A DNA stretch of 42,819 bases from Polyangia bacterium (GTDB lineage: Bacteria; Myxococcota_A; Polyangia; Nannocystales; Nannocystaceae). Positions 6,029-42,819 of the stretch are shown in pieces. Numbering within the stretch: the stretch's first letter is position 1; every line of letters starts with the position of its first letter. The DNA lies in assembly GCA_030430565.1 (NCBI GenBank), contig JAUIKS010000008.1, forward strand, positions 303,225-346,043, read 5' to 3'. A program made the position numbers and the translations under genes. Under the pieces are notes generated by a model. The model saw only the letters and a program-made list of their open reading frames with translations. It made no database searches and was not told the DNA's origin.

Positions 6029-7903
6029 GTGGTGTCCGTTCTGATATCGTCCCGCGGCATGTCCGGCGCCCGGCCGCAACGAAATTTCGCCTGCTTCGCG
6101 CGCTGGGTCGAACGCGCTCGGATCGCGGAGCGGCTCGCAGTCGCGGCCTGTGGCAAATCCACATCGACCGCGACGCGGGCCATCGACCGCGACGCCGTCC
6201 AGACCGCCTGGCGACGCGCGAGCCGGGCCGTGGCCGCCCGCGTGGCCATGGCCTGCGCGCGGGAGCGACTCGTGGACGGTACGTGGGCCAACGATTCGCT
6301 CGTACTCCGGCCGCTGGGCATCTCCTTGCCGCTCGCGCGGCTGTCCGCCTTTGAGCTCCACGAGCCCGAGCTGGACGCCCCGCGGGCCGCGACGCTCGAG
6401 GACCCGGTCGCGCTGCTCGACGCGCTGTGGCCGACGCTGTCGGCGGTCGTGGAGATCCCGCGTGTGGGCGAGGGACGCGTGCGCGCCGAGCTCGAGGACT
6501 GCGTCTTTAACCTCGCGCTCAACGAGTACGCCGCGGGCGCGCGTCATCGCGTCGCCGCCGAGCGCGGCGAAGTCGGGCCGAGCCCCGCGCTCATCGACTC
6601 CGAGCAGCTCCCGACGGCCGGGCACCCGTGGCACCCGCTGTGTAAGACCCGGCTCGGGCTCTCGCTGCGCGAGAACCTGCTGCACGCGCCCGAGCTCCTG
6701 GGCGACGGCTCGTTCCTCGCGGTCGACATCGACGCCGCCCACGCGGCGACCAGCGGGCGCTACCTCGAGCTCGCCGCGCGGGTGCTGCCGACCCCGCCCA
6801 AGGGACAGGTGCGTGTGCCGGTCCACCCCGCGCAGCTGCGGCGCCTGCCCGCGCTGCTCGGGCGCTCCTTCGGACAGGTCGTACGCGCGGTCGCGCTCCC
6901 ACACGGATCCGTTCGCGCGCGCGCGCTGCTCAGCACGCGCACGGTCGTCGTCGACGCCCCGCGCGTCGCGGCGCGGCTGCACGTCAAGCTCGCCGTCAAC
7001 GTGCTCACGACCAGCGCCACGCGGACCGTCTCCCCGATGAGCCAGATCAACGGTCCGCGCGTGAGCGCGCTGCTCGAGCGCATCCGAGCCCGCGACCCGG
7101 AGACGCGCGGGCGCGTGCTGATTCAGCCCGACGGCGGCGGCGCGGGCCTGCTGCAATCACGCTACGGCGACGCGGCGCGCCAGCTGGGCGTCATCCTCCG
7201 CGAGTCCCACGAGCCGCTGGCGCGCGCGCTCGTCCCCGAGCCAGCGCGCACGCCGAGAGCCTGGGTCTGCGCGGCCTTGGGAGAGCGCCCCCCCGGGGGC
7301 GCCCGCTGTCTGCTCGCCGAGCTCGCGGCGGGCTACCCCGGCGCACCGCAGGCCCGCGGCGAGGCGATGATCGCCGACTACGTGAACGCCCTCGCGCCGC
7401 CGCTGCTGCGCATGCTCACGGCCCACGGCGTCGCCCTCGAGGCGCACCTGCAAAACACCCTGGTGGTCAGCGACGGCGCGCGCGTCCGCGGCTTCCTCAT
7501 CCGCGATCTGGGCGGCATCCGCGTGCACAGGCCGCGCCTGCGCGCCGCCGGTCACTCCCTCGAGCTGGCGCCGGGCTCGTTCATCGCCACCGACTCCCTC
7601 GAGGAGGTCCAGCGCAAGCTCAGCCACGTGCTGTTTCACGCCCACCTCGCCGCCGTGTTCTCGGCGGCGGCGCGCTCGCTCGCGATCCCCGAGCGCCGGT
7701 GCTGGGCGCTGACGCGGGACGTCGTCGCGCGCGCGCTCACGACCTGGTCCCGAGATCCAGCGCTGCGCGCGGCCTGTGAACGCGACCGCGTCGCCTTGCT
7801 CGCGCCGCGCTGTCACGCCAAGGCGCTGTTTCACATGCGCCTGCTCGACCGCAGCAGCGACTACCGCTACACGGTGGTCGACAACGCGCTCGCCGGGGGC
7901 TGA
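6029..7903 (+). CDS. IucA/IucC-family ATP-dependent amide ligase (NRPS-independent siderophore synthetase-like) with FhuF-like C-terminal domain
   Basis: 624 aa. GTG start at 6029 with GGAGG immediately upstream; the start is uncertain and the next ATG is at 6059. Motif [14 protein letters not shown] resembles the conserved H-x-Q-N segment of IucA/IucC enzymes. The C-terminal [11 protein letters not shown] region resembles the FhuF-like domain. The family call is motif-level only. Confidence 0.6.
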
Positions 7904-22570: not shown

Positions 22571-24412
22571 CTACGCGCCCGCCTCGACCGCGCGGAGGGC
22601 CACGATCGCGCGCCGCAGGTCCTTGCGCAGGCAGCCCAGGCAGTCACGCCGCTTAAACGCCTTGCCGCACTCGTCCCGCGGGAGCTTGCTCATCCGGCGC
22701 AGCAGCGGGAGCACGCGCGGGTCGCCGAGCTGCTCCAGCTCGAGCAGCACCGGCTGCTTCTCTTTGCAGGTGCTCGCGCGCTCGATCGCCGCGGCCAGGC
22801 GCGCGTAGTCGGGGACCTCGTCGGCGGGCTCGTGCTCGAGGATCGTCTCGATCGACCTCTTGAGCCGGTTGGGTCGCTTGCCGTCGATCACGACCGCGAT
22901 GGGCTCCTCGAGCTCGGCCGGCGCCGACGCGCCGCGTGATCCCGCGCCTGCCCGCTTCGACACCTTCGCTGTCGCGGCCGCGGGCTCCTCCACGTCTTCG
23001 TCGTCGCGCGACGACGCGCCGTCGTCGGACGATCCCGTCAGCGCGACGACCAACCCACCCACCAGCGCGACCAGCAGCAGCGCCGCGCCAGCGACGATCG
23101 CGAGGTTGCGCCCCGGCGCGCGGGACCGAAGCTCCCCCCGCGCCCCCGCGAGGATGCCGAGCGGGCTGTTCGGGCTCCGCGACGCCGACAGCAGCCGCTC
23201 CGCGGCGGCGGTCGGGGACTCGGCGATCTGCGTGACCGCGACCGGCTCGCGCGCTCCGCTCGGGGGCCCCGCCGGGAACACGACGCCGGCCGCGACGCTC
23301 AGCTCCTTGGGCGCGCCGTCGGCGAGCGCGTTGAGCCGCGTGCAGACCTCGACCGCGTCGCGCGCGCGCGCGGAGGCGTTTCGCGCCAACAGGCGCTCGA
23401 CCAGCTCGACCAGCTCCGCCGGCAGCTCCACGCCCTCGACGCCCGAGAGCGAGGGTGCCTCCTGGGTCAGCTGCATCTCGACGAGCGACTCCAGATCGTC
23501 GGCCGGCCACAGCCGCCGCCCCGAGATGCACTCCCACAGCAGCACGCCGAGCGAGTAGAGGTCGGCGCGCGCGTCGACGACCCCGCCGATCGCCTGCTCC
23601 GGCGCCATGTAGCCGGGCGTGCCGAGCACGACGCCGACGCGCGTGAGGACCGCGCCGTCGTCCGCGACCGGCGAATTCTCGGTGATGCGGGCCAGCCCGA
23701 AGTCGAGCACCCGCGCGAACGCGCTGCCGTCGGCCTGGCGCTCGATGATCAAGTTGTCCGGCTTGAGGTCGCGATGGATGATCCCCAGGCCGTGCGCCAT
23801 GGCGAGCGCGTCGGCGATCTGCCCGCCGAGCCGACACGCGAGCCCCCACGGCAGCGGCCCGCGGGCGAGGATCGCCTCGAGGCTCTGACCGTGCACCAGC
23901 GTGCTCACGAGGAAGGCGCCGCCCTCGAGGAGCTCCCCGTAGTCCATCGCGCCGACGATGTGCGGGTGGTCGAGCAGCGCCGTCACCTTCGCCTCGCGTT
24001 CGAAGCGCGCGAGCACCTCGTCGTGGTTGAGCGTCTCGGCGCGGATGAGCTTGACCGCGACCTGCTTGTTGAGCTTGAGGTGCTCGGCGCGGTACACCGA
24101 GCCCATGCCGCCCTCGCCGATCTTGTCGAGGATCCGGTAGCGCCCCTCGATGACGCGCCCGATCATCGGGTCGATCGCCACGCCGAGCTCCGCCTCGTCC
24201 GCGACGACCTGCGCGGTCAGGCCCGCGGGCCCCTGCTCCTCGCTCGGCGCCGCCGCGGGCGCGGGGGCCGGCTCGATCGGGCGCGGCGTGACGAACATGG
24301 TGCCGCCCTTGGCGAGCGCGCTCCAGTCGGGCGCCCCGGGCTGCGCCCCCTGCAGCTGGGCCTCTGAGCCGATGCCGGAGAACGCTCCGCCCTGCGAGTC
24401 ATCGTTCGTCAT
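22571..24412 (-). CDS. Eukaryotic-like Ser/Thr protein kinase with single TM segment and C-terminal extracytoplasmic region
   Basis: ATG at 24410-24412 (MTNDDS); the ORF track starts 20 codons earlier. Hanks-type motifs: GEGGMGSVYRA (Gly loop), VAVK, HRDLKPDN (catalytic loop), DFG, GTPGYMAPE. TM helix LAIVAGAALLLVALVGGLVVAL. Confidence 0.85.
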   Translation of the reverse strand: MTNDDSQGGAFSGIGSEAQLQGAQPGAPDWSALAKGGTMFVTPRPIEPAPAPAAAPSEEQGPAGLTAQVVADEAELGVAIDPMIGRVIEGRYRILDKIGEGGMGSVYRAEHLKLNKQVAVKLIRAETLNHDEVLARFEREAKVTALLDHPHIVGAMDYGELLEGGAFLVSTLVHGQSLEAILARGPLPWGLACRLGGQIADALAMAHGLGIIHRDLKPDNLIIERQADGSAFARVLDFGLARITENSPVADDGAVLTRVGVVLGTPGYMAPEQAIGGVVDARADLYSLGVLLWECISGRRLWPADDLESLVEMQLTQEAPSLSGVEGVELPAELVELVERLLARNASARARDAVEVCTRLNALADGAPKELSVAAGVVFPAGPPSGAREPVAVTQIAESPTAAAERLLSASRSPNSPLGILAGARGELRSRAPGRNLAIVAGAALLLVALVGGLVVALTGSSDDGASSRDDEDVEEPAAATAKVSKRAGAGSRGASAPAELEEPIAVVIDGKRPNRLKRSIETILEHEPADEVPDYARLAAAIERASTCKEKQPVLLELEQLGDPRVLPLLRRMSKLPRDECGKAFKRRDCLGCLRKDLRRAIVALRAVEAGA

Positions 24413-24735
24413 CAAGCGCCACTCACCGTCGCCAGCCGGTCGCGCGCGCGAGCGCGGCGCCGATCCACCCACGACGAGAGTACCGCGTGCGCGCGCTCGG
24501 GGACTAGCCCCATCGCGCGCCGTGGTTCTGCCGCGAACGACGAGCGCACGAGGCTACAGCAGATGCTCGCGCGTCGCTTCGCGTTCGCCTCGTTCGCGCT
24601 TCGGTCCGCTCGCTGCATTTCCGCCCCCTTGCCGATCGCGCGTCGAGACGTGATGAGCGATGGGGACTCGCGCGAACGGACCGACGACGACCGGGCCGCG
24701 GGCCCGCGCGCCATCGCGCCGAGCGGGCGCGCGAC

Positions 24736-26592
24736 TCAGGCGCGCTCCTGCGTGATCCCGTAGCGCTTGAGCTTGTTCAAGAATGTCCGCAGGGGCATCT
24801 TGATCAGCCGGGCCGCCTGGGTCTTGTTCCCGCCGGAGGCGCGCATCGCCTCGGAGATCCGGCGCACCTCGAGCTCGCGGATCTCCTCCTGCAGCGGGCG
24901 GAAGCGGGGCGTGTCGTCCTCCCCGGGCGCCGGGCGCTGCGGAGCCGCGCCCGCGCCCGCGCGCGGCGGCGGCTCCTGCTCCAGCAGATCTCCGACGTGC
25001 CAGGACTCGAGCGTGCTCCCCGAGATCACGCTCGCGGCGTACTCCATCGCGTTGCGGAGCTGCCGGATGTTCCCGGGCCACGAGCGCGCCGCGAGGTCCC
25101 GCATCGCGTCGCCCGTGATCACGAGCGGCGCGCGGCCCTGGCGGACGCAGGCGTCCGTCAAGAACTTGCGCGCGAGGATGGCGAGCTCGCGCGGCCGGTC
25201 GCGCAGCGGCGGCAGCCACAGCCGCGCACCACCTAGCCGAAAGAACAGGTCTTCCCGGAACCGCCCCTCGCTGACCGCGTCCTTGAGCTCGCGGTGGGTC
25301 GCCGCGATCATCCGGACGTCGATCGAGATCTCGGAGATGCCGCCGACCCGCATGATCCGCTGGCTCTCGAGCGCGCGCAGCAGCTTGGCCTGCGCGACCA
25401 GGCTCAGCTCCGCGACCTCGTCGAGGAACACCGAGCCGCCGTTCGCCGCCTCGAGCAGGCCGACCTTGGTCGCGTGCGCGCCCGTGAAGGCGCCCCGCTC
25501 GTGGCCGAACAGCTCGCTCTCGATCAGGCTGTCTTGCAGCGCCGCGCAGTTGAGCGCGACGAGCCGCCCGCTCGCCCGCGGCGACCAGTGGTGTATCGCG
25601 CGCGCGACCAGCTCTTTGCCGGTCCCGGTCTCGCCGCACACGAGCACCGGGATGTCCGAGGCCGCGACTCGCTCGGCGATCCCGTACACGCGCAGCGTCG
25701 CCAGGTCCGCCGCGACGATCTCGACGTCACCCGTGTGGATCATGCGATAGGCGTCCGTCGCGTCGATGACCAGGCCGGGCGCCGCCGTGTCGACGGCCGC
25801 GCGCGCGGCCGCGATCATCGTCTCGATCTGCGCGCCGTCGCGGGGACAGCACGCGAAGCCCATCCGGCACCCCGGGTCGACCCGCGAGAGCGCCGCGTGC
25901 ACCCCCCGCGCCAGCTCGCGCCCGTCCTCGGCGTCCGCCTCCGGCATCAGCAGCAGCAGCACGCCGTCGGGCTCGGGGGCCGCCGTGTCGATCGCCCGCA
26001 GCTGCTTCATCAGCACCGGCTCGATCGCGCGGTGATCCGCGGCGGGCAGACGCACCGCGACGACGCAGAGGTCGCGCCCGAAGTTGACCGCGCGCAGTAG
26101 CTCCTCGCCGAGCCGCGCGCGGAAGTCCGCCTTGTCGATCATGCGACGCCCGCCGCGCGCCCGCCCGCGCGCGTGGTAGATGATCGTCGTGTTCGCGATC
26201 GAGATGACGTCGCCCGGGTGGAGCAGGTGCGGCGCGTCGATCCGCTGGTCGTTGACCGCGGTGCCGTTCTGGCTGCCGAGGTCGAAGATCGTCGCGCGGC
26301 CGTCCTCGATCACGAGCTGCGCGTGCCGCCGCGACGCGAGGTAGTCGACGATCTGCAGGCCGACCTCGACCGCGCGGCCGATCAACACGACGCCGGCGCG
26401 CGGGAGCGTGAAGACGAAGGCCGAGTCTCGCTGCAGCACCATCAGGTAGCCCGGCGCGTCAGCCTGCCCGTCGGCCTGCTCGTCCGCGCTCGACGAGCTC
26501 GGCGCCGAGAGGGTGTTGTGCAGCGTCGGCGCCGACCACAGGTGCCCCTTCGGTTTGCGCGGGGCCGCGCCGCCGCTGTTGCTCTCGTCCAT
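24736..26592 (-). CDS. Sigma-54-dependent transcriptional activator (bacterial enhancer-binding protein) with N-terminal FHA domain and C-terminal Fis-type HTH
   Basis: 618 aa with an ATG start. FHA-like GRAVEVGLQIVDYLASRRHAQLVIEDGRATIFDLGSQNGTAVN. AAA+ sigma-54 interaction domain: Walker A GETGTGKE, ESELFGHERGAFTGA (GAFTGA motif), Walker B SVFLDEV, arginine finger region RQLRN. C-terminal HTH KTQAARLIKMPLRTFLNKLKRYG. Confidence 0.85.
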   Translation of the reverse strand: MDESNSGGAAPRKPKGHLWSAPTLHNTLSAPSSSSADEQADGQADAPGYLMVLQRDSAFVFTLPRAGVVLIGRAVEVGLQIVDYLASRRHAQLVIEDGRATIFDLGSQNGTAVNDQRIDAPHLLHPGDVISIANTTIIYHARGRARGGRRMIDKADFRARLGEELLRAVNFGRDLCVVAVRLPAADHRAIEPVLMKQLRAIDTAAPEPDGVLLLLMPEADAEDGRELARGVHAALSRVDPGCRMGFACCPRDGAQIETMIAAARAAVDTAAPGLVIDATDAYRMIHTGDVEIVAADLATLRVYGIAERVAASDIPVLVCGETGTGKELVARAIHHWSPRASGRLVALNCAALQDSLIESELFGHERGAFTGAHATKVGLLEAANGGSVFLDEVAELSLVAQAKLLRALESQRIMRVGGISEISIDVRMIAATHRELKDAVSEGRFREDLFFRLGGARLWLPPLRDRPRELAILARKFLTDACVRQGRAPLVITGDAMRDLAARSWPGNIRQLRNAMEYAASVISGSTLESWHVGDLLEQEPPPRAGAGAAPQRPAPGEDDTPRFRPLQEEIRELEVRRISEAMRASGGNKTQAARLIKMPLRTFLNKLKRYGITQERA

Positions 26593-27676: not shown

Positions 27677-27816
27677 ACGCCGGAGGGACGGGCCGCGCGC
27701 GGTCCGTCCTGCTTACACGGCCCCGCGCTGACGCGAGACCGCGAGCTGCTCGGCAGACGAGCGCGGCGCCCAGCGCTATGCCCGCGAGATACAAGACGAT
27801 GATCACGATTAGCCGA

Positions 27817-29058
<1,242 letters not shown>

Positions 29059-29085: not shown

Positions 29086-29115
29086 ATGACCCCGAGGACC
29101 TTTCCTCGGGGTCAT
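29086..29115 (+). terminator. Strong stem-loop (13-bp perfect stem, 4-nt loop) downstream of the GD-repeat lipoprotein gene
   Basis: ATGACCCCGAGGA-CCTT-TCCTCGGGGTCAT, 28 nt after the stop at 29058. No downstream T tract, which is common in high-GC bacteria. Confidence 0.55.
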
Positions 29116-29167
29116 GTCGTTCGCGCCGCGCGTGAGGTGGTACTCTCGGGGCGCTCAGAGGTTGACC

Positions 29168-29689
29168 ATGTACGTCTGCGATCACTGTCAGCGCCACTAC
29201 CGGGCGCGCGAGCCCCACTGCCCGTTCTGCGGCCCGACGCCGCGCAGCGTCGCGGCGTCGACGCTGCTGACGCTCGGCCTCGGCCTCGCGCTCGGCGTAG
29301 CGACGACGAGCTGCGGGGACGACAAGACGAACGAGAGCGGGAACGAGAGCTCGCAGACCTCGACCGACGCGGACGACTCCACCACGACCTTCTACGCGGG
29401 CCCGGGCCCCAGCACGGAGCTCTCGAGCTTCGGGACCACCGCGGCCGAGACCACCGACGCGACCGCGGGCACGACCGGCACCGACCCGGGCACGGAGACC
29501 GATACAACCACCGGCGACAGCACGGGCCAGAGCACGACCGACGCGACCGAGGGCGACAGCAGCTCGAGCGCGTCGGACTCCGACGCGACGACAGAGGCGA
29601 CGACCGAGGCGACGACAGGCGCGACGACGGGCGACAGCTCGGGCTCCGGCGGGGACCTCGACGTCGACCCGCCGCGCGCAGACAAGTAG
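29168..29689 (+). CDS. Zinc-ribbon / single-pass membrane (or lipo-)protein with long Thr/Ser/Asp/Gly-rich extracytoplasmic tail
   Basis: Internal ATG at 29168 gives MYVCDHCQRHYRAREPHCPFCGP (CxxC-x10-CxxC zinc ribbon), then the hydrophobic AASTLLTLGLGLALGVATTSCGDD, then about 110 residues of low-complexity T/S/D/G. The ORF track starts 18 codons earlier, inside the terminator hairpin. Confidence 0.55.
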   Translation: MYVCDHCQRHYRAREPHCPFCGPTPRSVAASTLLTLGLGLALGVATTSCGDDKTNESGNESSQTSTDADDSTTTFYAGPGPSTELSSFGTTAAETTDATAGTTGTDPGTETDTTTGDSTGQSTTDATEGDSSSSASDSDATTEATTEATTGATTGDSSGSGGDLDVDPPRADK

Positions 29690-29725: not shown

Positions 29726-31060
29726 GTGAGCCTTGAGGACACCCGCCGGCGCCTGCCGATCGTCGACTCGCTGCCGCGACCGAAGACGCGCTCGCTCCTG
29801 CCGGTCGCGCCGGGACAAGGTCCGCGCCCGCGGCTCGCGGTGTGGGAGTTCACGCTCGCCTGCGACCAGCGCTGCCTCCACTGCGGACCCCGTGCCGGGC
29901 GGGCGCGACGGGACGAGCTGAGCACCGAGGAGGCGCTCGCGCTCGTCCGCGAGCTCGCCGCCGCGGGCGTGGGCGAGGTCGCGCTGATCGGCGGCGAGGC
30001 GTACCTGCGAAACGACTTCATCCTGGTCATCCGCGCGATCCGTGAGACTGGGATGACGGCGACCATGGTCACCGGCGGCTACAACCTGACGCGCGCGCGC
30101 GCGGAGGCGGCGGTCGAGGCCGGGATCAGCAGCGTCAGCCTCTCGATTGATGGCCTCGAGGACAGCCACAACCGAGTCCGCGACACGCCCGACAGCTGGC
30201 GCCGCGCGTTCCGGGCGCTCCGCCTGCTGCGCGAGGCCGGCTCGCGGATCTCGGTCAACACGCAGCTCAACGTGTGGACGCGCCACGAGCTCCCCGCGCT
30301 GCTCGAGCTGATCGCCGCCGAGGGCGCGTGGGCGTGGCAGCTGCAGCCCACGGTCGCCCACGGCAACGCGGCCGATCACCCCGAGCTGCTGCTGCAGCCG
30401 TACATGTACCTGGAGCTCTTCGACGCCGTGGAGCGCGTGCTCACCCGCGCCGAGTCGCTCGGCGTGCGGGTCTCGCCCGGCAACAGCCTCGGGTACTTCG
30501 GTCCGCTCGAGCACCGCCTGCGGAGCAGACAGATGCGCCGCACGGGGCACTTCCGGGGCTGCGAGGCCGGGCGCTCGACGATCGGCATCGAGAGCAACGG
30601 GATGATCAAGAACTGCCCGAGCAACGGCGGCCCGACGAATATCGGCGGGAGCTGGCGCGAGCGCAGCCTCGAGGAGCTGTGGACAGAGACCCCGCAGCTC
30701 AGCTCGCTGCGGGCGCGGACGGTCGAGGACCTCTGGGGCTACTGCCGCGAGTGCTACTACGCCGACCTCTGCCTCGCCGGCTGCACCGCCGTCTCGGAGC
30801 CGCTGCTCGGTCGACCGGGCAACAACCCGTACTGCCACCATCGCGCGCTCGAGCTCGACAAGCTCGGTCTGCGGGAGCGCGTCGAGCTCGTGCGGCCGGC
30901 GACCGCGGAGGCCTTCGCTAGCGCGCTGTTCCGCGTGGTCCGTGAGCACAAAGACGCGGCGGCGCGCGAGCGCCACGGCGGCCCCGTCGCGATCGAGGAG
31001 CCCCGGACGTCGCGGCTCGGAGATTGGCGGGGGCCCGGCGCGCCCGTTCCGCAGAGGTGA
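29726..31060 (+). CDS. Radical SAM enzyme with C-terminal SPASM domain (peptide/protein-modifying maturase family)
   Basis: 444 aa with a GTG start at 29726 and GGTGA 5 nt upstream. CxxxCxxC radical-SAM cluster motif FTLACDQRCLHCG. GGEAYLRNDF (GGEP-like). SPASM Cys motifs CEAGRSTIGIESNGMIKNCP and WGYCRECYYADLCLAGCTA. Confidence 0.8.
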   Translation: MSLEDTRRRLPIVDSLPRPKTRSLLPVAPGQGPRPRLAVWEFTLACDQRCLHCGPRAGRARRDELSTEEALALVRELAAAGVGEVALIGGEAYLRNDFILVIRAIRETGMTATMVTGGYNLTRARAEAAVEAGISSVSLSIDGLEDSHNRVRDTPDSWRRAFRALRLLREAGSRISVNTQLNVWTRHELPALLELIAAEGAWAWQLQPTVAHGNAADHPELLLQPYMYLELFDAVERVLTRAESLGVRVSPGNSLGYFGPLEHRLRSRQMRRTGHFRGCEAGRSTIGIESNGMIKNCPSNGGPTNIGGSWRERSLEELWTETPQLSSLRARTVEDLWGYCRECYYADLCLAGCTAVSEPLLGRPGNNPYCHHRALELDKLGLRERVELVRPATAEAFASALFRVVREHKDAAARERHGGPVAIEEPRTSRLGDWRGPGAPVPQR

Positions 31061-31063
31061 CGG

Positions 31064-31618
31064 CTATCGCGTCGCCGCGGCGAGCGAGCGCAGCACGCCG
31101 GGCTCGAGGCGCGCGAGCGCGGAGCGGATGAAGTCCCCGGTCTCGACGCCCTGCGCGGCGCTGTAGCGGCGCGCCTGCAGGGCCATGTCGAGCTTGTCGC
31201 AGGCCTTCACGAAGCGCCCTTCTGGGCTCGATCCGTCCTCGTACTCTCGCCAGAGCGCCGTCAGCTCGCGTCCCCGCGGTCCTAGCGGCGCGAGCATCCC
31301 CGAGAGCGCCGCGAGCTCGCGCGCCCGCTTCTCCTCCGCCGGCACGCCGTCGTGGGGCGTGATATCGCCGACCCGGACCTCGGCGAGATCGTGAATCACC
31401 GCGATCGCGAGCGCGCGCCCGCGGTCGAGCGCCGGGGGACACAGCGCCAGCACGAGCCACGCGACCCCCCACGAGTGGGCCGCGACCGACTCGGCCCCCT
31501 CGACGCCCACGCGCAGCCAGCCGGCGCGCGTAACCTCTTTAAGCGCGAGCGCCTCGAGCAGCTGCTCGCGCAGCTCGTGCAGCTGCGCGTCGGGACAGGG
31601 CGGCTCATGTTCGCGCAC
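31064..31618 (-). CDS. HD-domain phosphohydrolase (YfbR-like 5'-deoxynucleotidase family)
   Basis: 184 aa with a GTG start. The H...HD motif is present (ESVAAHSWGVAWLV...IAVIHDLAEVRVGDITPHD), and CDKLDMALQA matches YfbR-like HD proteins. Convergent with the radical-SAM gene, 3 nt gap. Confidence 0.7.
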   Translation of the reverse strand: MREHEPPCPDAQLHELREQLLEALALKEVTRAGWLRVGVEGAESVAAHSWGVAWLVLALCPPALDRGRALAIAVIHDLAEVRVGDITPHDGVPAEEKRARELAALSGMLAPLGPRGRELTALWREYEDGSSPEGRFVKACDKLDMALQARRYSAAQGVETGDFIRSALARLEPGVLRSLAAATR

Positions 31619-32041
31619 GCGCTCGATCGTAGCACCCTCTCAATCGCGGGTGCGCAGACCCGCGCCGCGCAGACCCGCAATCTGCATCTGAGGACATCAA
31701 CGCAGGAGGGCGCGCGAACGCGCGAGGTACTGCTCACACGATCCGGCGCGCTCCCTCGCGGTCGCGCCGGATCATGACGCGTCCCCGCGACCGCGTCCGC
31801 GGATTCAACACACAGCGATGATTCAACGCCGTTTTAAACACACATTTTATCTCCACCTTAAATCACAACACCTCCGTGTTGAGGGTCAGGACAGGCTACA
31901 GACCAGACACGCGCCCCGCGTGATTTCAACCGTCCAACTCACGTGATTAACTCGCTGGATAGTCGACGCGGCGCCGCTCGCCGGGAGCGCGACGCTGTGG
32001 CGTTTTGACCCGCTTGACCGCGAATCTCTCGATCTCGATCG

Positions 32042-32080
32042 CGTCGAAGGAACGACGTTAAATCGTTGACTTTAATCAAC
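32042..32080. promoter_or_regulatory. Two adjacent inverted repeats (CGTCG-AAGGAA-CGACG and GTTGA-CTTTAA-TCAAC) in an AT-rich region about 120-160 nt upstream of the cytochrome c peroxidase gene
   Basis: Read from the sequence at 32042-32057 and 32065-32080. Candidate operator sites. Confidence 0.3.
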
Positions 32081-32200
32081 ACCGCGTGAGAGCGTGCCAT
32101 CAAAGCGCCGACTGTTTTCCGGCGTGTTTGTACGCGCGACATTGCGAGCTGTTTGTTCGCTGGCTCGCTGCTGTCCGCGATCGCATGAGAGAAGGTGGAG

Positions 32201-33799
<1,599 letters not shown>

Positions 33800-33822
33800 G
33801 GTCGAGCGCCCCTGGACGCTGT

Positions 33823-33848
33823 CCGAGCGACCCCCGCGGGCGGCTCGG
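33823..33848. terminator. Candidate bidirectional terminator hairpin between convergent genes (ccp and histidine kinase)
   Basis: CCGAGC-N14-GCTCGG with an internal CCCGCGGG palindrome. Lies in the 68-nt convergent gap. No T tract. Confidence 0.3.
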
Positions 33849-33867
33849 CCAGCCTCCCGGGGCGCGC

Positions 33868-35253
33868 TCAGGTCGGCAGCCGGACCGTGAAGCAGCTGCC
33901 GACGCCGAGCCGCGAGGTGACCGAGATGCTGCCGCCGAGGCCGTCGATGATGTGCTTGGCGAGGCTCAGCCCGAGGCCCGCGCCCTCGAACGCGCGCGCC
34001 CGCGAGCCGTCGACCTGCTGGAAGGGCTGGAAGATGTCGTCGAGGCGCTCGGCCGGGATCCCGATCCCCGTGTCCTCGATCGAGACCTCGACGCCGCTCG
34101 CGCCCGCGAGGCCGACGCCGCGGACCGTGCACTTCACCCGCCCCTTCTCGGTGAATTTGATCGCGTTGCTGAGCAGCGCCGTCAGGACCCGGCGCAGCTG
34201 CATCGGGTCGCTGCGGACGTGCGTCAGATCGCTGGCGAGCTCGCAGGTGATCTCGAGGCCCTTGGCGTAGGCCAGCGGCTCGAGCGTCGCGATCAGCTCG
34301 TTGAAGAAGGGCAGCAGCTCGAAGCGATCGAGCTCGTAGGAGGCGCGCGAGGCGTCGAACTGCGAGAGCTCGAGGACGTCCGAGATCATCGTCACGAGGT
34401 GCCGGCCCGAGGCGATGATCTGGTTGAGCAGCTCGAGCTGCTCGTCGGGCTCGATCTCCTCGTCGACGATGCCCTCGCTGAGCTCCTCGGCGTAGCCGAT
34501 CATCGCGTTGAGCGGGGTCCGCAGCTCGTGGCTCATCGTCGCCATGAACGCGGCCTTGGCCCGGTGGCTCACGTCGATCCGCTCGGCGAAGGCGCGGGCC
34601 TCGACCTCCTCGAGCGCGGCGCGCGTGAAGCGTCGCTCGGAGGCGACCGCGATGTCGATGCTCTCGTTGCGCAAGCGCTCGAAGTGAACCATCAGCCAGG
34701 TGATGATGGTGATGACGACGAGGTGCCCGACCAGCGCGAGCGTCAGCCAGTCGCTGTCGCCGGGGATCAGCCGCCCCGGGAGGCGCCCGCCGAGGTCGAG
34801 GAGGTAGAAGCTGACGAGCGCCGTAGCGACGACGCCGGCCCACACGAGGCCCGAGCGGAAGCCGGCGATCAGGATGCTGATCGGGACGACGATCGCGAAG
34901 CCGACGCTCAGCGAGCCGCGCAGCCCCCCGTCGAAGGCGACCGCGTAGCTGAAGCTGATGAACGCGAGCGCGGTCAGCCAGTTGCCCGCGATCAGCAGCG
35001 ATCCAGTCTGGCGCAGGAGCACGGGCGTCACGAGGAACATCCCGCTGACCACGAGGCTGTAGGCGATCCCGATCAGCTGCGCGCGGTCCTCGGCGATCAG
35101 CAAGAGCAGCGGGATGAAGGCGAGCGCGAGCACGCCGCAGACGACCGAGATGAAGACCGCGAGGCTGACGCGATGAGCGCTCTCGGCGTTCATCAGCATC
35201 GCCCGAGGGAGACCTTCCTCGACGAAGGCGCGCACGTGGCCGAACAGCTGCAC
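33868..35253 (-). CDS. Membrane-bound sensor histidine kinase (multi-TM N-terminal sensor, HisKA + HATPase_c)
   Basis: 461 aa. GTG at 35253, or internal ATGs at M19/M21. Five to six hydrophobic helices, then the H-box AAFMATMSHELRTPLNAM, N-box LSNAIKFT, and G-boxes DTGIGI ... GAGLGLSLAK. Confidence 0.8.
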   Translation of the reverse strand: MQLFGHVRAFVEEGLPRAMLMNAESAHRVSLAVFISVVCGVLALAFIPLLLLIAEDRAQLIGIAYSLVVSGMFLVTPVLLRQTGSLLIAGNWLTALAFISFSYAVAFDGGLRGSLSVGFAIVVPISILIAGFRSGLVWAGVVATALVSFYLLDLGGRLPGRLIPGDSDWLTLALVGHLVVITIITWLMVHFERLRNESIDIAVASERRFTRAALEEVEARAFAERIDVSHRAKAAFMATMSHELRTPLNAMIGYAEELSEGIVDEEIEPDEQLELLNQIIASGRHLVTMISDVLELSQFDASRASYELDRFELLPFFNELIATLEPLAYAKGLEITCELASDLTHVRSDPMQLRRVLTALLSNAIKFTEKGRVKCTVRGVGLAGASGVEVSIEDTGIGIPAERLDDIFQPFQQVDGSRARAFEGAGLGLSLAKHIIDGLGGSISVTSRLGVGSCFTVRLPT

Positions 35254-35330
35254 CCTCTATGAGCATGCCCCAAAGGACCTGTCCCAACAATACAAAGCGC
35301 GATCGGGGCGGGTACGCGATCGCTCGCGCC

Positions 35331-37070
35331 TCAGCGGGTGGCCGCGAAGGTCCGCCGCTCGGCGTAGCGCGGCAGCACCATCGTGAACCGCGATCCCTCG
35401 CCGTGTCGGCGCTCGGCGAAGACCTCGCCGCCGAGCAGCTCGGCGAAGCGCCGGATGATCGCCACCCCGAAGCCGGTCCCGTCGTGGGGGACGCTCGCGC
35501 CCGGGGACTCGGGCGTCGTGTAGGGGTCGAACATCGCGGCGACGCGCCCAGGATCGACCGCGCCGCCGCTGTCCTCGACCACGAAGCGCACGCGGTCGCC
35601 CTCGCGCTCGCGCCCCCACTCGTCCTCGACGAGCACCGTGATGAGACCGCGCTGCGTGAACTTGCACGCGTTGGCGACCAGCGTCAGCATGCACTGACGC
35701 ACCTTGGTCACGTCCGCGTGCATCGTGCCGGCGCCGTCGAGGCCGCGCACGACGATCTCGTTGCCGCGGCTCTCGGCCAGCGGCAGCACGTTGTCGACCA
35801 CCTCCGTCACGATCTCGGCGAGTTCGAAGGTCTCGGGCGCGAGCTGGGCGGTCCCGGCCTCGAGGTGCGCGAGATCCAGCACGTCGTCGGTCAGCTCGAG
35901 CAGGCGCTTGCCGGCCGCGAGGATCTTCGCGAGGTCCTGGGCGACCTCGAGCTGCTCGCTGTCGCGCGCGTCCTCCTCGAGCATCTCGGCGTAGCCGATG
36001 ATCGCGTTGAGCGGCGTGCGGACCTCGTAGGTCATGCTCGCCATGAAGGTGTTCTTGGCCTTGTTCGCGACCTCGGCCTTGTCGAGCGCCTCGACGAGCT
36101 GCTCGTTCTTGCCGGCGAGCTCAGCCGCGGCGAGCTTGAGCCGCTCGCGCGCGTCTTTTTGCTCCGTGATGTGCTCGGTGAACAGGATGAGCCCGCCGAT
36201 CTCGCCGTTGGTGTGCCGCCACGGGTGCACCTCCCAGCGCAGCCACTCGACCCGGCCGTCGCGGCGGCGGAAGGGCTCCTCGGCGCGACGCTCGACCCGA
36301 CCCTCGAGACATCTTTTGTACGCGACCCGGATGTCGCGCGTCGTCTCGGGGAACACGTCGTAGTAGCCGACGCCGATCAGGTCGCGACCGTGCAGGCCGT
36401 AGTCGGAGAGGAAGCGTCGACTGACGAGCATGAAGCGCATGCGCGAGTCGAGCATCGCCACGGCCGCCGAGGTGTGCTCGACGAGCAGGCGCAGCAGCCA
36501 CTGGCTCTGGTGCAGCGCGCGCTCGGCCTGCCGCCCCGAGAGCGGCGCGCCGAAGCCGTTGTCGCCGCGCCCGCCGGGCCCGGTCGCGATCTGAAAGGCC
36601 GAGCGCGCCTGCCTGCGCAGCATCGCCTCCCAGCGCTTCTCCTCGGTGACGTCGCGCGCGAGGCCGAAGATGTGCCCCGCGTCCACGCCGTCGCGCGCCC
36701 CCTTGTTCAGGCTCCACGTCAGCCAGCGGTGCGCGCCGTCCTCACAGCGCATGCGCACGAGGCAGCTGGCCTTGTCGTGCTCAGCGCGCGCCCGCTCGAG
36801 CTCGCCGTCGAAGACCTCGCGGTCGTCCTCGTGCACGAGCTCCTGCAGACGCCGCTGGTTCACCAATTCAGGCGAGTAGCCGAGCACCGACTCGAAGGCT
36901 CGATTGACGCGGAGGATCCTGCCGCTGAGGTCTACGAGACACATCGGATCGGGCGACAGCGCGAAGAATCCGACCGTCGGATCGACCCCTGTGGTTACGG
37001 AACCCATGAAAATTCTGTGCGCGGTCGCAGTCCAGGGAGGCTCGCCGCGCAGACCTGCCCAGGGTAGCAC
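35331..37070 (-). CDS. Cytoplasmic PAS-domain sensor histidine kinase (2 PAS + HisKA + HATPase_c)
   Basis: 579 aa from the GTG at 37070, or 558 aa from the ATG at 37005-37007. PAS segments (FFALSPDPMCLVDLSGRILRVNRAFESVLGY; AVAMLDSRMRFMLVSRRFLSDYG), a coiled-coil, H-box NTFMASMTYEVRTPLNAI, HATPase N/G boxes (VANACKFT, DSGGAV, GTGFGVAI). Confidence 0.8.
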   Translation of the reverse strand: MLPWAGLRGEPPWTATAHRIFMGSVTTGVDPTVGFFALSPDPMCLVDLSGRILRVNRAFESVLGYSPELVNQRRLQELVHEDDREVFDGELERARAEHDKASCLVRMRCEDGAHRWLTWSLNKGARDGVDAGHIFGLARDVTEEKRWEAMLRRQARSAFQIATGPGGRGDNGFGAPLSGRQAERALHQSQWLLRLLVEHTSAAVAMLDSRMRFMLVSRRFLSDYGLHGRDLIGVGYYDVFPETTRDIRVAYKRCLEGRVERRAEEPFRRRDGRVEWLRWEVHPWRHTNGEIGGLILFTEHITEQKDARERLKLAAAELAGKNEQLVEALDKAEVANKAKNTFMASMTYEVRTPLNAIIGYAEMLEEDARDSEQLEVAQDLAKILAAGKRLLELTDDVLDLAHLEAGTAQLAPETFELAEIVTEVVDNVLPLAESRGNEIVVRGLDGAGTMHADVTKVRQCMLTLVANACKFTQRGLITVLVEDEWGREREGDRVRFVVEDSGGAVDPGRVAAMFDPYTTPESPGASVPHDGTGFGVAIIRRFAELLGGEVFAERRHGEGSRFTMVLPRYAERRTFAATR

Positions 37071-42209: not shown

Positions 42210-42639
42210 CCCGAGGACGAGCGCGCCTCTCGACGGGGCGACGCGACCTGGCGAAGACGCGCGGCGGAGGATTCGAAGATTCGTTGCACGTCCAAAGATC
42301 GGCGTGCGTGAGCGCGCGCTGACACGCTCATCACCGCACGCTCACCGCGCGGCCCCGCGAGTCAGCCCGCAAGCCGTGCGCGCCGCGAATTCACTTGTTG
42401 AGATATGTCCCCAAATTAACAGGCGTGCGTATTCGTGCCAAAAAGACGCATCGCGCCCACGCGATCTCGATCACGCGCGGAACAAATCAACACCCCTACG
42501 AACGCGAATGCCTGCCCCTCGCGGCGAAACTGTGCCATCATCGTCACCGCTCGCCACCGATAGAAAGGGACTGCGGGGGCCGGCACGACGCAGTTGTATG
42601 TCGCAACAGTTCGCCACCTCCCTACCCGCACGGAGATCG

Positions 42640-42819
42640 ATGACCAGGCACAAGTCAGTCTTTTTTGCCACGCTGCTCTCTCTCTCTCTCGCCGGCACGG
42701 CCCACGCGTCGAGCAACGAGCTCGCCGAAGGTCCCGCCGAAGCCGACGGCGGCGCCTCCGCGGAGGGCTCCCTCTCGTTTGGCGGAGGCGACGGCGCCTC
42801 GGCCGAGGGCGACGCCTCG
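42640..42819 (+). CDS. Secreted protein, 5' fragment (truncated by the window edge)
   Basis: ATG at 42640 with GGAG 4 nt upstream. MTRHKSVFFATLLSLSLAGTAHASSNELAEG is a signal peptide followed by a Gly/Ala/Asp/Ser-rich region. Open to the end of the window and preceded by a roughly 430-nt lower-GC intergenic region. Confidence 0.4.
   Translation, partial: MTRHKSVFFATLLSLSLAGTAHASSNELAEGPAEADGGASAEGSLSFGGGDGASAEGDAS

Follow-up and report, generated by a model that had tools for sequence, protein, structure and literature searches.

In this work, we analyse a long intergenic gap from a Polyangia bacterium of the family Nannocystaceae (assembly GCA_030430565.1, contig JAUIKS010000008.1), situated in a stretch of 42,819 nucleotides (nt) that was analysed as a whole and is called the window. 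The gap separates two divergent genes, coding for an HD_3-type hydrolase and for a di-haem lipoprotein of the CCP_MauG superfamily (the ccp gene in the text below). It measures 582 nt (31619-32200) when the latter gene starts with the ATG at 32201, or 576 nt (31619-32194) with a GTG start; we prefer the ATG, because it is preceded by the ribosome-binding sequence AAGGTGGAG. The gap probably represents a divergent non-coding regulatory region, with a functional core presumably formed by the 146 nt that adjoin the di-haem gene (32058-32200). We read it as an ordinary, if long, multi-site promoter with a 5′ leader, possibly under a CRP/FNR-type regulator, and not as a new RNA or a new genetic element. 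An earlier note on this DNA had proposed a heavily regulated promoter of a cytochrome c peroxidase gene. What stands of this proposal concerns the ccp-proximal 146 nt, which are conserved, start with a box holding a dyad and contain a TTGAC recurring in orthologues; the rest of the gap is not conserved.

The conserved block next to the di-haem gene

Conservation was gauged against L007, a locus on an ENA metagenome contig and the syntenic orthologue of the region, with 86% amino acid (aa) identity of the HD protein, 92-93% of the di-haem protein and a gap of 576 nt. In a blastn comparison of the window with L007 the gap aligned just at 32058-32200, with 82% identity over 146 nt. Within this block identity in 40-column sliding windows amounted to 0.75-0.88, and the distal 31619-32057 (approximately 440 nt) showed 40-60%. 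In the 68-nt spacer located 3′ of the di-haem gene (33800-33867) about half of the columns are identical. Since both the distal gap and this spacer are near saturation between the two genomes, the 146-nt block is taken to be under selection. Four-fold degenerate sites between 32201 and 33796 are 76% identical, which we attribute to strong pressure on GC at the third codon position (GC3) and not to neutrality; being far from neutral (76% versus about half in the spacers), synonymous sites are here a poor yardstick for intergenic conservation. The earlier note had named lack of conservation in relatives as an argument against its proposal, and the outcome is divided: the ccp-proximal 146 nt are kept in L007, the distal 440 nt or so have diverged.

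Other relatives are more distant. L001, a Logan contig, is 100% identical across the gap and for this reason was regarded as the same strain; apart from it and L007, protein identity does not exceed 72% (L008, 72% aa), and the di-haem proteins of Plesiocystis pacifica and a Nannocystis sp. are 66% and 69% identical, respectively. By these homologues the organism, a marine-type myxobacterium, belongs with those of the Nannocystaceae type. A scan of genome contigs with the CCP protein returned just Pyrinomonadaceae matches of 26-33% identity, unusable for footprinting. A metagenome-contig scan with a 25-protein alignment gave 80 loci, among them five orthologues (62-68%), none nearer than L007 or L008.

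At the start of the block there is a 24-nt box, TTAAATCGTTGACTTTAATCAACA, all positions of which are the same in L007, compared with approximately 80% in the remainder of the block. This box holds the dyad GTTGA-N6-TCAAC, which is centred at 32072.5 (128.5 nt before the ATG) and has one perfect instance in the 42.8-kb window. Positions 32066-32079 (TTGACTTTAATCAA) form a perfect CRP/FNR core, TTGA-N6-TCAA, with one mismatch to the FNR box TTGAT-N4-ATCAA, and the flanking G and C extend this FNR-like core to the full dyad. The window has one other TTGA-N6-TCAA, intra-coding, at 24767. Within the dyad lies the hexamer TTGACT, similar to a -35 element. Of the 11 orthologues compared, 8 have the pentamer TTGAC between 93 and 140 nt upstream of the start codon, and L099 has it at -89; because of this recurrence upstream of most orthologues, the -35 reading is the best-supported element of the block.

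Downstream of the box, a hairpin, a further stem and a palindrome (Table 1) give hints that fall short of a structured RNA. The hairpin stem at 32105-32125 consists of six pairs, five G-C and one G.U; L007 has the same stem with 4 of the 9 loop bases changed, and L008 carries at the same place a hairpin of other sequence (GAGCGCGC...GCGCGCTC), devoid of the T tail. In its position the element resembles 5′-terminal stem-loops or attenuator hairpins, being a short GC hairpin approximately 35-40 nt past a -35-like element, with the place kept in three orthologues; unlike attenuator hairpins, it has a stem of only six pairs, lacks a proper U-tract and does not fold with significant stability.

From these features we infer promoter function, the position of the transcription start, the kind of regulator and any response to oxygen or peroxide. 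In the proposed mechanism RNA polymerase would use the TTGACT region, which follows an A/T-rich lead-in. A dimer of a CRP/FNR-type protein would occupy GTTGA-N6-TCAAC, a site that overlaps the -35 element, and act there as an activator or a repressor. Transcription would begin approximately 30-45 nt downstream, yielding a leader of about 100 nt that would open near the 32105-32125 hairpin and carry at its end the ribosome-binding site AAGGTGGAG. The distal part of approximately 440 nt would serve as a fast-evolving spacer, kept AT-rich. Its copies of a TTWAATCA motif, described below, are probably auxiliary sites, bound either by this regulator or by a different DNA-binding protein, and the AT-rich stretch probably also holds or serves the promoter of the divergent HD gene.

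The di-haem protein and possible redox control

The CCP_MauG domain of the di-haem protein scores 105 bits in Pfam against a cut-off of 25.6, two CxxCH haem sites (CGTCH and CASCH) are present in the translation, and di-haem peroxidases from PDB match at 1e-20 to 1e-22. The protein has 532 aa, approximately 190 more than the solved peroxidases, and a lipobox LGVSAC followed by a run of 12 Asp residues (D12; window 32330-32368) marks it as a lipoprotein. The best NCBIfam matches, to the His-Xaa-Ser-associated MauG-like family (162 bits, cut-off 340) and to MbnH (108 bits, cut-off 363), are all below cut-off, and therefore "cytochrome c peroxidase" is a label at the superfamily level only. As a side observation, a 426-aa protein encoded at 27778-29058 contains a run of approximately 50 Asp-Gly (DG) repeats; the DG and D12 runs both represent low-complexity linkers of acidic character, each in a secreted protein or lipoprotein.

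Redox control of the gene is plausible only by analogy with FNR-regulated ccp genes, such as ccpR of Neisseria gonorrhoeae, which is under FNR control (PMC6172773); ccp of Escherichia coli is induced under hypoxia with OxyR (PMC8115020). As in FNR/Anr-dependent ccp promoters, a TTGA-N6-TCAA dyad is located upstream of a gene for a CCP-superfamily lipoprotein and overlaps a -35-like hexamer. In those promoters the activator is placed around -41.5, whereas here the site is positioned only relative to the ATG. The differences are that only two genomes, closely related to each other, have the dyad, that the host is an (aerobic-type) Nannocystaceae-like myxobacterium, and that the product is a 532-aa MauG/MbnH-like variant versus a canonical peroxidase of approximately 340 aa. 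The peroxide or redox control suggested in the earlier note is thus in part upheld: the FNR core within the dyad agrees with it, while the absence of the dyad from distant orthologues and the superfamily-level assignment of the protein do not.

Several points weigh against a promoter core governed by such a regulator. Constraint on the block was gauged on one close relative, L007, that is on a single genome pair. There is no second dyad site in the window; a scan of seven further orthologous gaps (L008 to L016) gave no FNR-like site at up to two mismatches, the second half-site after the promoter-proximal TTGAC is missing in L018, L021 and L022, and neither L098 nor L099 has a TTGA-N6-TCAA core. 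As the second half-site is missing from L008 and all more distant orthologues, the dyad is lineage-specific, and the conserved feature may therefore be a bare -35 element. No sigma-70 -10 element (TATAAT-like) follows TTGACT at 16-18 nt, and the promoter scan of 31400-32400 gave 0 sites; the expected place is occupied by AGAGCG in the window and by CGAGCT in L007 and L008. No gene of the CRP/FNR family (cNMP-binding or Crp-type) occurs among the window genes. The protein, moreover, may function not as a peroxidase but as a maturase like MauG or MbnH, a possibility that makes FNR-controlled ccp genes a less fitting analogy.

Other known regulators fitted no better. In the case of sigma-54 (-24/-12 elements; GG-N10-GC, in a TGGCAC / TTGCA context) the best candidates in the gap are at the level of the window background, with no well-matching conserved site. 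Judged by eye against the respective consensus sequences, there is no good fit to OxyR, Fur/PerR or IHF sites, a DnaA-box, CtrA or a dif-site.

The AT-rich distal part and its recurrent motif

The GC content of the gap is 0.60, compared with 0.717 (standard deviation 0.042) for the whole window, and the lowest-GC part of the window (31663-32353, with a 200-nt minimum of 0.52) falls largely on it. According to a gene map based on GC3, the other gaps of at least 180 nt have a GC content of 0.69-0.75, and for this reason the gap is rightly called unusual; the large other gaps are occupied by long high-GC3 open reading frames (ORFs), two of them with Pfam domains. The description of the gap as unusually long and AT-rich was hence borne out, the gap measuring 582 nt and having the lowest GC in a window of 72% GC. 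Next lowest in GC is the stretch 42250-42700 (200-nt minimum 0.575), located 3′ of a Metallophos gene near the window end.

In both genomes the GC minimum occurs in the bin 350-400 nt from the ATG, with 38% in the window and 40% in L007. The sequence TTTAATCA, allowing at most one mismatch, has 5 matches, all of them within the gap (0.68 expected for the whole window), and 4 matches in L007, where 0.26 are expected from a local block shuffle and three lie in non-alignable DNA. At the 31944-31951 copy the 12-mer GTTAATCACGTG recurs in L007 on the opposite strand. Low GC and the TTWAATCA copies are therefore retained in both genomes despite the turnover of the sequence.

The direct repeats and both palindromes reported in the earlier note are indeed present, with exact copies of GATTCAAC at 31802 and 31820 and GTGATT at 31920 and 31943; both words are portions of the TTWAATCA motif on one strand or the other. 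Individually, the short repeats are weak (11 exact 8-mer repeats in the gap versus 6.5 expected, P=0.12), and in aggregate the counts exceed those of dinucleotide shuffles: 7 versus 1.2 for TCAAC, 8 versus 0.85 for TT[ACT]AA[CT], and 4 versus 0.97 for dyads with 5-nt arms and a 6-nt spacer (P=0.008), although, to the detriment of our reading, such P-values are optimistic because the patterns were picked after inspection. The CGTCG-N6-CGACG palindrome and the second GATTCAAC copy are likely due to chance; like the match to the Shine-Dalgarno region at 31846-31859, they are taken as such because they are absent from L007. A long-range pairing of 31846-31859 with 32192-32205 (13/14 complementary) was considered and dropped for its absence from L007, being probably fortuitous. 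On the minus strand, 31859-31834 reads AAGGTGGAGATAAAATG TGT GTT TAA, i.e. the same Shine-Dalgarno sequence as in front of ccp, then an ATG and an ORF of 3 codons, likewise absent from L007. No second copy of the gap sequence was found in the window or in 99 retrieved loci, so that the gap is not a relic of a repeat or mobile element.

Long upstream regions are common to the orthologues of the di-haem gene. Of the 12 further distinct orthologous loci that were measured, 11 have a gap of 456-780 nt and L014 has one of 218 nt, and the upstream neighbour varies from locus to locus, except in the syntenic L007. Since long gaps recur beside unrelated neighbours, the long region belongs to the di-haem gene and not to the HD gene. 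The upstream gaps of the orthologues (L007-L022, L098, L099) are GC-poorer than their loci, e.g. 0.48 versus 0.59 in L099. A multiple alignment of 8-13 orthologous upstream regions gave no alignment beyond sub-clades. The sub-clade of L011 and L016 (proteins 87% identical) has conserved islands of its own, reaching approximately 350 nt upstream and unrelated to the window sequence. Among these islands (L011:3229-4000, L016:3339-4000) are a 16-nt near-palindrome, GGGGGAGATCTTCCCC, and CAGCTGnGGACACAT directly upstream of TTGACC. A link to neighbouring two-component genes was rejected, as the PAS kinase beside the L008 orthologue is not orthologous to the kinases of the window. Comparison of these sequences suggests that the family has an elaborate promoter region which evolves fast, rather than one conserved element.

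Developmental and carQRS-type promoters of Myxococcus xanthus use upstream sites, CarD and IHF. The gap resembles such multi-site promoters in its long, comparatively AT-rich upstream DNA with dispersed short sites; none of the described M. xanthus motifs (MrpC, FruA) was recognised in it.

Table 1. Location of the gap, its flanking genes and its sequence features (window coordinates; a dot marks features given for neither strand)
Feature	Position	Strand	Remarks
HD_3 / YfbR-like phosphohydrolase gene, left flank	31064-31618	-	Pfam HD_3 4.6e-36; 86% aa identity to the partial L007 gene
Whole non-coding gap between divergent HD_3 hydrolase and CCP_MauG genes	31619-32200	.	no codon periodicity; no ORF kept in L007
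GC-rich inverted repeat CACGATCCGGCGCG / CGCGCCGGATCATG	31737-31776	.	14-nt arms, 93% complementary; in a weakly conserved island (57-62% identity) towards the HD gene
AT-rich island	31800-31960	.	50-nt bins down to 38% GC; sequence unconserved
GATTCAAC, first copy	31802-31809	+	GGATTCAAC kept in L007
TTWAATCA-type copy TTGAATCA	31819-31826	-	overlaps second GATTCAAC
TTWAATCA-type copy TTTAAACA	31833-31840	+	motif scan
TTTATCTCCACCTT	31846-31859	+	complementary to 32192-32205, where ccp has its ribosome-binding site and start; not in L007
TTWAATCA-type copy TTAAATCA	31858-31865	+	motif scan
TTWAATCA-type copy GTTAATCA	31944-31951	-	part of CACGTGATTAAC
Palindrome CGTCG-N6-CGACG	32042-32057	.	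not kept in L007
Conserved block, read as ccp promoter and 5′ leader	32058-32200	+	alignable with L007; 1-, 2- and 1-nt indels
24-nt box	32058-32081	+	24/24 identical in L007
Dyad GTTGA-N6-TCAAC	32065-32080	.	among compared genomes in the window and L007 only
-35-like hexamer TTGACT	32066-32071	+	within the dyad; close to TTGACA
Exact TTWAATCA copy TTTAATCA	32071-32078	+	makes up the right arm of the dyad
Short hairpin GCGCCG / 9-nt loop / CGGCGT, then GTTTGT	32105-32125	+	outside terminator criteria
Second possible stem GCGAGC...GCTCGC	32144-32168	+	A-to-G change in L007 keeps G.U pairing; three sequences, weak
8-nt palindrome GCGATCGC	32177-32184	.	GCAATTGC in L007 (symmetric double change); GCAATTGT in L008
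Ribosome-binding sequence AAGGTGGAG	32192-32200	+	read from sequence; kept in L007
Di-haem CCP_MauG-superfamily lipoprotein gene, right flank	32201-33799 (alternative GTG 32195)	+	Pfam CCP_MauG 5.7e-30

Competing explanations and significance

Two alternatives would place a gene product in the gap. It is extremely improbable that an unannotated small protein is encoded there. ORFs do exist (91 aa at 31939-32214 on the minus strand, which the earlier note took for the sole one, and two further of 40-42 aa), and the minus-strand 31859-31834 has the Shine-Dalgarno sequence of ccp followed by an ATG, which opens just the 3-codon ORF mentioned above. There is no codon-position GC periodicity across 31620-32190, and the small ORFs have no Pfam match. 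The poor coding character ascribed to the 91-aa ORF was confirmed, and no ORF of the gap looks coding. Comparison with L007 revealed no conserved peptide or ORF; matching segments are spread over three frames, and together with indels of 1, 2 and 1 nt this excludes a conserved ORF in the block on either strand. That the conserved 146 nt act mainly as RNA, as a structured 5′ leader (attenuator, riboswitch-like or translational control), or that the gap holds a separate small RNA, is in our opinion quite unlikely. In favour of an RNA one can quote the hairpin stem kept with a changed loop in L007, the hairpin with another sequence that L008 has in this position, the A-U to G.U change tolerated in the stem 32144/32168, the U-containing tail GUUUGU after the hairpin and a local UCCGC/GUGGA pairing that could mask the ribosome-binding site. 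These hints are opposed by the results of all RNA searches: Rfam 15 gave 0 matches at gathering threshold in the whole window, and a permissive search of the gap gave best sub-threshold matches of 11-17 bits with E>1; a tRNA/tmRNA scan of the window was negative, and no intrinsic terminator (GC-rich stem, 3-8-nt loop, T-run) was found on either strand. The fold energy of the leader equals that of shuffles (z = 0.13 and 0.20), the anti-Shine-Dalgarno match at 31846-31859 is missing in L007, and the AT-rich part is unconserved in sequence. The covariation analysis for which the earlier note had called brought a negligible signal (a term of only -0.75 kcal/mol; the 3 sequences yielded 2 compensatory pairs), and nothing supports the small RNA that it had considered possible in the gap.

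The remaining alternatives concern mainly the distal part. Binding of the AT-rich island by a nucleoid-associated or AT-hook-type protein (e.g. a myxobacterial CarD/IHF-like one), which would silence or shape the divergent promoters and of which the AT-rich words would be the preferred sequence, is an unlikely explanation. It would account for low GC held at the same position in two genomes despite turnover, for the strong clustering of AT-rich words (20 dyads versus 7.7 expected), and for the upstream gaps of other orthologues being also long and relatively AT-rich; such binding is, however, a supposition from sequence, promoter regions of high-GC genomes are AT-enriched generally, the word enrichment is missing from more distant orthologues, and the defined G/C positions (..AATCA) point rather to a sequence-specific factor. 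We put no higher, as likewise unlikely, the proposal that the TTWAATCA sites and the GTTGA-N6-TCAAC box make up a multi-site operator of an undescribed Nannocystaceae DNA-binding protein, which would loop or coat approximately 300 bp and so control the gene of the MauG/MbnH-like di-haem lipoprotein; selection would then keep the number and spacing of sites and the low GC while the intervening sequence turns over. It is improbable, finally, that the distal 440 nt are functionless, i.e. a leftover spacer or the remnant of a decayed gene or insertion, with repeats and palindromes arisen by chance. Identity to L007 of 40-60%, as in the 3′ spacer, would fit this explanation, and so would the lack of conservation of CGTCG-N6-CGACG, of the second GATTCAAC and of the anti-Shine-Dalgarno match, and the insignificant enrichment of exact 8-mer repeats (P=0.12). 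Unconstrained DNA is here GC-rich, though (gaps of 0.69-0.75), while the island has 38-40% GC in both genomes; moreover, the TTWAATCA copies recur independently in L007, and neither the rest of the window nor the retrieved loci contain the gap a second time.

The gene content of the window is typical of myxobacteria. It includes genes for an FHA-domain sigma-54 activator (24736-26592), a Ser/Thr kinase (22571-24472), two histidine kinases convergent with the di-haem gene (33868-37070) and an IucA/IucC siderophore synthetase (6029-7903). A 191-aa ORF at 29114-29689(+) encodes an N-terminal CxxC...CxxC zinc-ribbon, a transmembrane helix, a T/S/D-rich linker and a C-terminal ...GSGGDLDVDPPRADK. 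Directly 3′ of it lies a radical SAM/SPASM gene (29726-31060), the best NCBIfam match of which is TIGR03913, "GDL motif peptide-associated radical SAM/SPASM maturase", with 405 bits, below the cut-off of 592. The two probably constitute a peptide-maturase pair.

The main practical value of the obtained results is negative, the eye-catching AT-rich stretch holding no new RNA gene, no mobile element and no hidden ORF, and no general concept is changed by them. They may be of use for annotation and for studies of regulation in Nannocystaceae, the promoters of which are poorly characterised. If the reading of the gap as a multi-site promoter with a 5′ leader is true, it would offer a testable promoter architecture, with a -35 element within a CRP/FNR-type dyad and a leader of approximately 100 nt, for a gene family widespread in marine myxobacteria, and it would hint that the MauG/CCP-like lipoprotein responds to oxygen or to the redox state.

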